A DNA stretch of 37,572 nucleotides from the NCBI GenBank assembly GCA_964459585.1, contig CAYWME010000001.1, positions 1 through 37,572 of the forward strand, given 5' to 3'. Source of the stretch: an uncultured archaeon. GTDB lineage: Archaea; Aenigmatarchaeota; Aenigmatarchaeia; CG10238-14; EX4484-224. The notes under the pieces are model-generated. The model saw nothing but the letters and a program-made list of their open reading frames with translations. It was not told the DNA's origin and searched no databases. This document shows, one piece after another, positions 37,275 to 37,572 of this stretch (position 1 is the first letter of the stretch; every line of letters begins with the position of its first letter). The position numbers and the translations under genes are program-made.

Positions 37275-37463
37275 ACAACCGTAAACTTTTTTCCTATAAA
37301 TATTGAGATATCACTCAAATTTCATAATTCTTCATAATTCTATAAAATCGTTAAATTCGTTACTAAATTATAACAATGTTATAATATAAATATTTGTTAT
37401 AAATTGTTTTGATTAATAAGTTTAAACACACACTAAAGTATAATAGAAAAACATTTTCATGTA

Positions 37464-37572
37464 TTCATAAAAACATTTCCAACTTTCATAATTTTTTTCA
37501 CCTTTATTCATAGAAAATTTTCCAATATTCATAAAAATATATCCGTTGTTCATAAAAATTCTTCCATTGTCT
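37464..37572 (+). repeat. Five head-to-tail approx. 21-bp iteron-like repeats (TTCATAAAAAnnTTTCCnnnn), truncated by the window end
   Basis: TTCATA(A/G) cores begin at 37464, 37485, 37507, 37528 and 37549 (spacing 21/22/21/21). Four units have TTCC/ATCC 12-14 nt into the unit and the fifth (the second unit) has TCACC there. Further TTCAT cores occur at 37456. A tandem TTCATAATTC x2 lies at 37321-37340. Confidence 0.75.

Follow-up and report, generated by a model that had tools for sequence, protein, structure and literature searches.

Phased repeats beside an A/T-rich core in an aenigmatarchaeon: a candidate arm of a remodelled oriC1-type replication origin

In the current view, nearly all archaeal replication origins are specified by Orc1/Cdc6 proteins on origin recognition boxes (ORBs), the one well-studied exception being oriC3 of Sulfolobus with its protein WhiP, and we know of no origin that has been mapped in a DPANN archaeon. 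Here we describe a locus at the end of a 37,572-nucleotide stretch (the window), which is the whole of contig C1 (GenBank CAYWME010000001.1) of a metagenome-assembled genome (MAG) from a tiny DPANN archaeon of the Aenigmatarchaeota. At this locus a phased array of five repeat units, together with an A/T-rich core, lies between the genes of two small winged-helix (WH) proteins, p125 and p92. Comparative genomics indicates that the array is probably part of an origin region; with less assurance, we favor the view that it is the right arm of a remodelled oriC1/Orc1-1 origin whose units would be bound by a WH protein. Like classical oriC1 loci (Sulfolobus oriC1, and the oriC-cdc6-DP1-DP2 cluster of Pyrococcus), whose genomic slot it shares as judged by sister-family synteny, the locus has an A/T-rich core flanked by polar, mirror-oriented sites that overlap the promoter of the adjacent gene, carries a conserved motif within its putative duplex-unwinding element (DUE), and heads a replication-gene cluster (initiator slot, DP1, polymerase). 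Unlike those loci, it has no G-string ORB and no adjacent gene for an AAA+ Orc1-1, and carries instead ~21-bp units, TTTCC-N4-TTCATAAAA, repeated head to tail up to eight times, with the two small WH genes on its flanks.

The closest functional precedent appears to be Sulfolobus oriC3, which has no ORBs and depends on the adjacent WH protein WhiP rather than on Orc1 (PMC3607249; PMC4010727). Both loci are without an ORB or mini-ORB and are paired with the gene of a WH-only protein, and WhiP, which binds A/T-rich repeats, sets a precedent for an archaeal origin defined by a non-AAA+ WH protein (PMC3607249). The resemblance would be functional and architectural only. In particular, WhiP is a tandem-WH, Cdt1-related protein, whereas p92 is a single WH of 85–92 amino acids with no detectable WhiP, Cdt1 or Orc similarity, and oriC3 is one more origin on a chromosome that has several, whereas the locus described here appears to be the ancestral origin in remodelled form.

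The array is made of head-to-tail units of the form TTTCC-N4-TTCATA(A/G)AAA that start at positions 37464, 37485, 37507, 37528 and 37549, with spacings of 21, 22, 21 and 21 bp, exactly as an initial annotation made from the letters of the window had placed them. In order, the units read TTCATAAAAACATTTCCAACT, TTCATAATTTTTTTCACCTTT(A), TTCATAGAAAATTTTCCAATA, TTCATAAAAATATATCCGTTG and TTCATAAAAATTCTTCCATTG; (T)TTCC-N4 comes after each TTCATA(A/G)AAA, and Tandem Repeats Finder (TRF) assigns the array a period of 21–22. The spaced motif TTCATA-N15-TTCATA is observed 3 times where 0.01 are expected, and none of 100 shuffles reached 3. A genome-wide search for further clusters of the repeat, which the initial annotation had proposed, found this to be the sole cluster of at least four TTCATA within 110 bp across the 598-kb MAG; because there is no second one, the array is not a dispersed intergenic repeat. 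A general TATA-box identity for the units was likewise ruled out, in that TTCATAAA occurs in 0 of 271 gene-upstream regions, whose TATA box usually reads ATTTAAA and lies at about −30, and a search of the locus for structured RNA gave no Rfam match. The array had been seen to run into the edge of the window, which it does because the window is an entire contig; longer contigs from two other assemblies of the same population (L003 and L004) show that it ends after unit 5, beyond which comes a sixth unit, in phase but degenerate, TCTATATCTT. The same two contigs differ from the MAG by a homopolymer polymorphism in unit 2, with T7 in the MAG (window 37492–37498) and T6 in L003 (932–937) and L004, so that with one T fewer every spacing there is exactly 21.

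Five direct repeats at 21/22 bp, 45 nt from an A/T-rich core, constitute an iteron-type arrangement. As in iteron plasmids (RepA, pi and TrfA, with 19–22-bp iterons), the direct repeats recur at about two helical turns beside an A/T-rich region, and a WH gene lies immediately downstream with its promoter overlapped by the sites. In contrast to those plasmids, the locus is chromosomal, sits among core genes in a synteny conserved across the order, has no match to the WH1–WH2 Rep fold or family, has no viral or mobile-contig relatives, and carries mirror-oriented arrays to either side of the core. A captured plasmid or virus replicon was rejected on these grounds: p92 and p125 have no relatives on the viral or mobile contigs searched, and the locus is core and syntenic.

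Between p125 and the array lies the candidate DUE. Among all 60-mers of the 37.9-kb contig it has the lowest stability (rank 0 of 37,827). The orthologous spot likewise comes first in instability in genome G056 (786 kb), in G076 (200 kb) and in G055 (198 kb), and ranks fourth in G060 and fifth in G089; in G081 it is not among the least stable sites. The candidate DUE contains a palindrome of the type ATAAC-N3/4-GTTAT, which is also found in many loci of the p92 type and in the A/T-rich core of 19 of the 20 canonical origin loci described below (the 20th is truncated). The motif ucm, which is essential inside Sulfolobus DUEs (PMC12141716), is the analogue of this palindrome. The initial annotation had recorded two copies of TGTTATAA, which are indeed present and prove to be the right half of the palindrome TATAACAATGTTATAA and the neighboring TTGTTATAA; the tandem TTCATAATTC it had listed is there too, as a pair of core-only copies that point inward, unlike the main units. 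It had further called for repeats in inverted orientation across the A/T-rich core, and one inverted unit is found at the end of p125, where an inverted repeat search picks it up as I1, a 28-nt match that is 79% complementary to the junction of units 4 and 5. The non-coding region, put at about 300 bp by the initial annotation, is a 327-nt gap that runs from 37275 to the equivalent of 37601, and its sole open reading frame (ORF), a minus-strand frame of 43–49 amino acids, is unsupported.

The identity of this chromosomal slot becomes apparent from a comparison of 118 genomes of the order, of which 24 belong to families f3 and f4 and 93 to other families. A DP1-like gene is present in 103 of the 118. 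In 20 f3/f4 loci the slot before the DP1-like gene holds an Orc1/Cdc6 of 403–435 amino acids, and in the 19 that have upstream sequence a textbook origin precedes that gene. There, the end of a metallophosphoesterase gene (...GRF.EGY.G..., homologue of that in the window) is followed by an inverted G-string ORB (CACCCC..TTTC..GGAAA), an A/T-rich stretch with ATATAACACTGTTATAT, a forward ORB TTTCCACAAGAAAC..GGGGTGGG, and TTTTCCAATAGAAAAAGGTTTATTTC, a mini-ORB combined with the transcription factor B recognition element (BRE) and TATA box, before the ATG of orc1-1. The f3/f4 Orc is a true Orc1-1, which aligns over its full length with S. solfataricus Orc1-1 (2QBY_A) at 359 bits and scores above the NCBIfam cut-off for ORC1-type equivalogs. 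The p92-type loci examined have, by contrast, a p92 homologue directly upstream of the DP1-like gene, with p125 usually 240–440 nt upstream of p92. The p92 gene occurs in 0 of 24 f3/f4 genomes versus 82 of the 93 from other families, and p125 in 0 of 24 versus 78 of 93 (families f1, f2, f5, f6 and f7), whereas Orc1-1 stands beside DP1 only in f3/f4. No Orc1-1-type gene turned up in the p92-type genomes; genus g43 was tested directly and has none, which rules out that it keeps Orc1-1 elsewhere. A few f5 genomes do give a second Orc match, in each case to a short, diverged copy located elsewhere. A search for the canonical ORB (TTCCA..GGAAA dyad plus G-string) found no ORB-like match anywhere in this MAG.

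Synteny, together with the mutual exclusion of p92/p125 and Orc1-1, therefore indicates that p125, the intergenic region and p92 replace ORB-DUE-ORB-orc1-1 in one chromosomal slot. By gene order, the locus is positionally orthologous to the canonical ORB-DUE-ORB origin with orc1-1, and Orc1-1 and ORBs are, so far as the genome sequences reveal, absent here and in about 80 related genomes. The gene beyond the window, which the initial annotation had expected to be orc1/cdc6, a rep gene or an integrase, is instead the 92-aa WH gene in the slot of Orc1-1. The ancestral oriC1 itself thus seems to have swapped its recognition system, with the states before and after preserved in sister families at the same slot, which provides a direct comparative handle on the replacement of replicator–initiator pairs.

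The units are conserved, with variation, across the p92-type relatives. They measure ~21–22 nt, with a core of (G)AAAGTTCATAAAAA / TTTCC-N4-TTCATAAAAA, and bracket the A/T-rich core in outward-pointing arrays of 1–8, with 1–8 reverse units on the p125 side, beginning at the stop of the upstream gene, and 1–6 forward units on the p92 side. The window has one unit on the left and five plus the degenerate sixth on the right; genus g43 and locus L202 have 6–8 left units at exactly 21 nt and one right unit. Read outward from the core, TTTCC comes first, which is the polarity of the f3/f4 ORBs. Among 46 distinct loci there are 35 forward and 78 reverse cores to the left of the least stable point, and 46 forward and 20 reverse cores to the right (Fisher 5.5e-7, a value that is descriptive only because the loci are related to one another). 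Of 37 named loci, 14 have an array of 19–24-nt period that TRF detects upstream of p92, several of these 14 with a different unit; TRF detects none of that period in the 20 canonical loci. All arrays with a TTCAYA core in long stretches of G060, G076, G089 and this MAG lie between p125 and p92; none occurs in 400 kb of the f3 genome G024, and none was detected in G056, G055 or G081. A dense TTCAC/GTGAA field (of the TTCACGTGAA type) was found in none of the genome stretches of this order examined.

The reading as a remodelled oriC1 is built on the positional orthology, the retained DUE and palindrome, the mirror-polar sites, the uniqueness of the array, and the co-occurrence of arrays with p92/p125 and with the loss of Orc1-1 and ORBs. 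The initial annotation's central idea, an array of initiator sites at a replication origin, is well supported by comparative genomics (orthologous slot, same DUE palindrome, least stable DNA, an inverted unit across the core); for an element-derived origin no support was found. There is also support for a hunch of that annotation, which had been reminded of mini-ORBs by TTCCA in the units, since TTTTCCAATA is common to units 3 and 4 and to the mini-ORB/promoter element at the canonical f3/f4 loci. The feature itself is real, conserved and non-canonical.

Two observations concern arrays at related loci. A second p92-like subgroup (MPRRPFG.../MGRxPYR..., 74–77 amino acids, some with SWHT), sometimes in tandem with p92, is found at loci L026–L028 (G082/G083/G087), L187, L204, L205 and L211, and has its own arrays of ~20-nt period directly upstream, such as CAAATCTTTTTAATAATTTC x5.4 (L205) and TTCAAAATCTTTGCAGATAAA x3 (L026). 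At L016 (G094:C15), a perfect microsatellite, AAAGATAAAG/GATAAAGAAA, of ~12 copies lies ~150–320 nt upstream of the p92 homologue and fills the position that left-arm units take in other genomes.

The units could in principle be lineage-specific mini-ORBs, read at a genuine origin by the one Orc1/Cdc6 that the MAG does encode, with p92 and p125 as accessory regulators or unrelated neighbors. This protein (347 amino acids; contig C78, locus L009, 928–1971) is a divergent paralogue but nonetheless a bona fide AAA+ protein of the orc1/cdc6 family with a WH domain, and the TIGR02928 subfamily model is the only one it passes (251 bits, above cut-off). Moreover, the units retain the TTTCC half of the ORB in the same polarity. 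Short mini-ORB arrays in Methanothermobacter and Pyrococcus, in which many short boxes lie partly in direct arrays and share the TTCCA-like half-site, are bound by a true Cdc6 whose gene is adjacent, and full ORBs occur alongside them (PMC1904270). Our locus, by comparison, has neither the canonical initiator nor full ORBs, and its repeats differ in unit and in spacing. Furthermore, f3 genomes also carry the divergent paralogue (~50% identity), yet neither the 400 kb scanned nor the 20 loci contain TTCATAAAA-type arrays, and arrays occur only where p92 and p125 are present. Only the AAA+ part of the paralogue aligns with the solved Orc1-1 (2QBY_A; 167 bits), and its WH domain is without the GRYGRTR wing of Orc1-1. 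We therefore consider it unlikely that this paralogue reads the units. An origin located beside the paralogue was also sought: its upstream 318-nt intergenic region on C78 contains no convincing repeats, and coding sequence abuts the housekeeping paralogue in G056 and G024, which rules that location out.

If WH proteins read the units, p92 is the most likely binder, possibly together with p125; we favor p92 because its gene is the constant neighbor and its recognition helix, SWNT..KY, is invariant. The p92 protein, whose homologues measure about 85 amino acids (MKRGRP...SWNTVQKY...PHSK), is confidently modelled as a single WH (predicted local distance difference test score (pLDDT) 83), with PadR, Fur/PerR, BlaI and Hop2 WH domains as the nearest folds in Foldseek, all at weak E-values. 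Pfam yields sub-threshold matches only (the TBPIP/Hop2 WH in 14 of 21 members) and NCBIfam no family; Pfam and profile searches gave no Cdc6_C match, and Pfam, a PDB profile search and Foldseek gave no match to Orc, Cdt1/WhiP or plasmid Rep. For p125, the AlphaFold2 (AF2) model (pLDDT 80) has ArsR/SmtB, MarR and CodY as its best folds, with no Pfam family above cut-off (a weak HTH_12) and no NCBIfam family. The two proteins do not appear to be paralogues (hhalign 6%). In g43 and L202, a different, 89-aa ArsR-like WH protein takes the place of the upstream partner, and the arrays and p92 persist, which identifies p92 as the constant partner.

The fold list of p125 bears on a further explanation, in which a small WH protein (p125, being ArsR/TubR-like) would coat the repeats for segregation or for compaction of the origin region, making the locus centromere-like or nucleoid-organizing. 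Partition sites are often origin-proximal, and TubR, a protein that coats iterated centromere repeats, appears in the fold list of p125; it ranks only 18 (E 6e-3), however, amid many generic ArsR/MarR matches, in a list in which Aeropyrum ORC1 ranks 38 and all entries are weak. No partition NTPase gene (ParA/SegA/TubZ-like) is adjacent, and the arrays persist at the loci where a different winged helix-turn-helix protein replaces p125. A segregation or compaction site is accordingly a highly improbable explanation.

In the mechanism that we favor for a remodelled oriC1, copies of a sequence-specific WH protein would sit on the units, and the spacing of two helical turns would align every bound copy along a single face of the duplex. 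Polar nucleoprotein arms formed in this way would flank the unwinding element and promote its opening, and the remaining divergent Orc1/Cdc6 paralogue might then help to load MCM at the core. Protein on the promoter-proximal units would probably repress the p92-DP1-PolB operon, much as Orc1 acts at its own promoter in classical origins, since the last units overlap the BRE/TATA region of this operon. Going further, we raise only tentatively that a clade of about 80 of the 118 genomes has dropped Orc1-1 and ORBs and that p92 (perhaps with p125) specifies the origin on the 21-bp iterons, leaving the Orc1 paralogue as an MCM loader only, or with no role. Such an arrangement, if it exists, would amount to a chromosomal split of origin recognition from helicase loading, WhiP-like yet unrelated to WhiP, which at present is a speculative notion. 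In either event p92, p125 and the 21-bp unit are testable candidates for origin recognition in DPANN archaea.

The array also overlaps the promoter of the p92-DP1-PolB operon. In particular, the degenerate sixth unit coincides with a likely TATA-like box, TCTATATCTTTTTA, upstream of the p92 ATG, and together with unit 5 covers the BRE/TATA position, ~25–40 nt before that ATG. This raises the question of whether the array is purely an operator, on whose phased sites p92 or p125 would bind cooperatively and auto-regulate the operon, with replication starting elsewhere or without a fixed site. In most relatives a single unit lies 5–40 nt before the p92 ATG, both p92 and p125 have WH folds of the transcription-factor type (PadR/Fur-like and ArsR-like, respectively), and in most genomes the skew support for an origin (see below) is weak. 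Sites that overlap the core promoter of their own operon, combined with such a fold, are what an operator array would present, and they are compatible with origin function. Left unexplained by an operator alone are the orthology to the canonical origin, the retained DUE palindrome, a core less stable than any other DNA in up to 786 kb, and mirror-oriented units on both sides of that core, often 100–350 nt from the promoter; searches next to the Orc paralogue and at the other extreme of the skew found no second origin-like region. A purely regulatory role is thus, in our estimation, improbable. Were it an operator only, the locus would still offer a clear case in archaea of replication genes regulated cooperatively from a helically phased array.

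Strand asymmetry provides weak and mixed support for the remodelled-origin reading, because the signal is confined to one genus and has the sign opposite to the bacterial one. In G056, whose contig C2 covers 786 kb of about 0.9 Mb, cumulative GC skew peaks once, at 293 kb, and reaches a single minimum at 707 kb; the locus is at 301 kb. Gene orientation in G056 is unbiased and the third-position GC skew flips between the two sides irrespective of gene strand, which argues that the asymmetry is of the replication type. Its congeners G060 and G055 are similar, with extremes 13–36 kb from the locus, which may thus be a replichore boundary in this genus. The skew inflection that the initial annotation had looked to find nearby therefore exists in one genus and is weak or absent elsewhere. 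Nothing origin-like was found at the opposite skew extreme of G056, where the region of the minimum contains no non-coding origin-like stretch. Within about 6 kb of that minimum (G056:C2 712597–713920) lie the C-terminal part of an MCM-like ORF and a gene for an RPA-like OB-fold protein.

Several observations weigh against a WH-bound origin arm. The skew switch is seen in only three genomes of one genus, 8–36 kb off the locus; its sign in G056, with the cumulative maximum at the locus, is that of a terminus in bacteria; and four further genomes (G076, G081, G089 and the f3 genome G024, which has a canonical origin) give a weak skew signal of the other sign, or none. The array abuts a promoter, the classic position of an operator, and is variable, being detectable by TRF in just 14 of 37 to about half of the p92-type loci. 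The fold of p92 is like that of ordinary transcription factors (PadR, Fur, BlaI) and fits a plain regulator equally well; an hhalign comparison with the WH domain of Orc1-1 gave a probability of 1.4%, with no detectable homology, and this result and the fold matches do not support p92 as a stand-alone remnant of the Orc1 WH domain. No AAA+ initiator gene adjoins the p125/p92 locus. Finally, the host MAG is only 79.5% complete, although the loss of Orc1-1 is lineage-wide.

Table 1. Coordinates of the repeat locus and of the genes around it (window positions unless a contig is named).
Feature	Position	Strand	Remarks
Right-arm array, five head-to-tail units TTTCC-N4-TTCATA(A/G)AAA	37464..37572 (units to 37569)	+	21/22-bp phase
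Inverted left-arm unit, ...CGGTTGTTCATAGAAA	37266..37285	-	Overlaps p125 stop codon
Tandem TTCATAATTC x2, two 10-nt core-only copies	37321..37340	+	TRF 100% match; inward orientation
Candidate DUE	37360..37419	.	90–93% A+T; holds conserved palindrome
Palindrome TATAACAATGTTATAA	37369–37384		Conserved, inside candidate DUE
TTGTTATAA	37394–37402		Beside palindrome in candidate DUE
Metallophosphoesterase gene	36136..36834	+	Pfam Metallophos E 5.8e-18; left synteny anchor
p125, 125-aa winged-helix gene	36897..37274	+	Left flank of module; N-terminal helix, winged helix, C-terminal helix (AF2 model)
DP1-like gene, 356 aa	Contig C15 (L008) 7864–8934	-	PolD small subunit derivative, inactivated
PolB, 920 aa	Contig C15 (L008) 5150–7912	-	C-terminal Cys motif CVNCGK..., partly masked by N run

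The MAG is spread over 90 contigs, and the locus was followed beyond the window with the help of other assemblies. An identical p125 is encoded in four further public assemblies, two of which (L003 and L004) reach further downstream and place the p92 ATG at the equivalent of 37602, 30 nt beyond the end of the window. In the MAG itself the locus resumes on the reverse strand of contig C15, past an 89-nt assembly gap (a link made via the other assemblies); the end of C1 has no overlap with other contig ends of the MAG. The gene order on C15 is p92, the DP1-like ORF and the family-B polymerase (Pfam DNA_pol_B, E 3e-119). The DP1-like protein matches NCBIfam DP1 equivalogs at E 8e-24, below cut-off; its phosphoesterase motifs are lost in this MAG, whereas relatives keep them and match Metallophos_2 and DNA_pol_E_B. 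The catalytic subunit of PolD (DP2) is absent from 117 of the 118 genomes. This pairing of PolB with a dead DP1 in Aenigmarchaeota has already been published, the polymerase being of PolB group B6 with a DP2-like C-terminal domain (Kazlauskas et al. 2020, PMC7544198). The locus thus heads an unusual, eukaryote-like PolB/dead-DP1 operon, which would link origin occupancy to replicase expression.

Assemblies break repeatedly in this region. The MAG contig stops inside the array (37572), C15 ends at 9197, and L003 and L004, which are independent assemblies, end at an identical base just past the p92 stop. Such repeated breaks suggest strain heterogeneity near the putative origin; a hot spot of variation near the origin has been reported in Ca. 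Forterrea (PMC5905446). Elsewhere in the window (35540–36079, minus strand), a tandem-CBS protein carries a C-terminal CxxC...CxxC zinc ribbon with a weak match to the Cas12f TNB zinc finger (E 6.5e-5, below cut-off), which is probably just a generic zinc ribbon.

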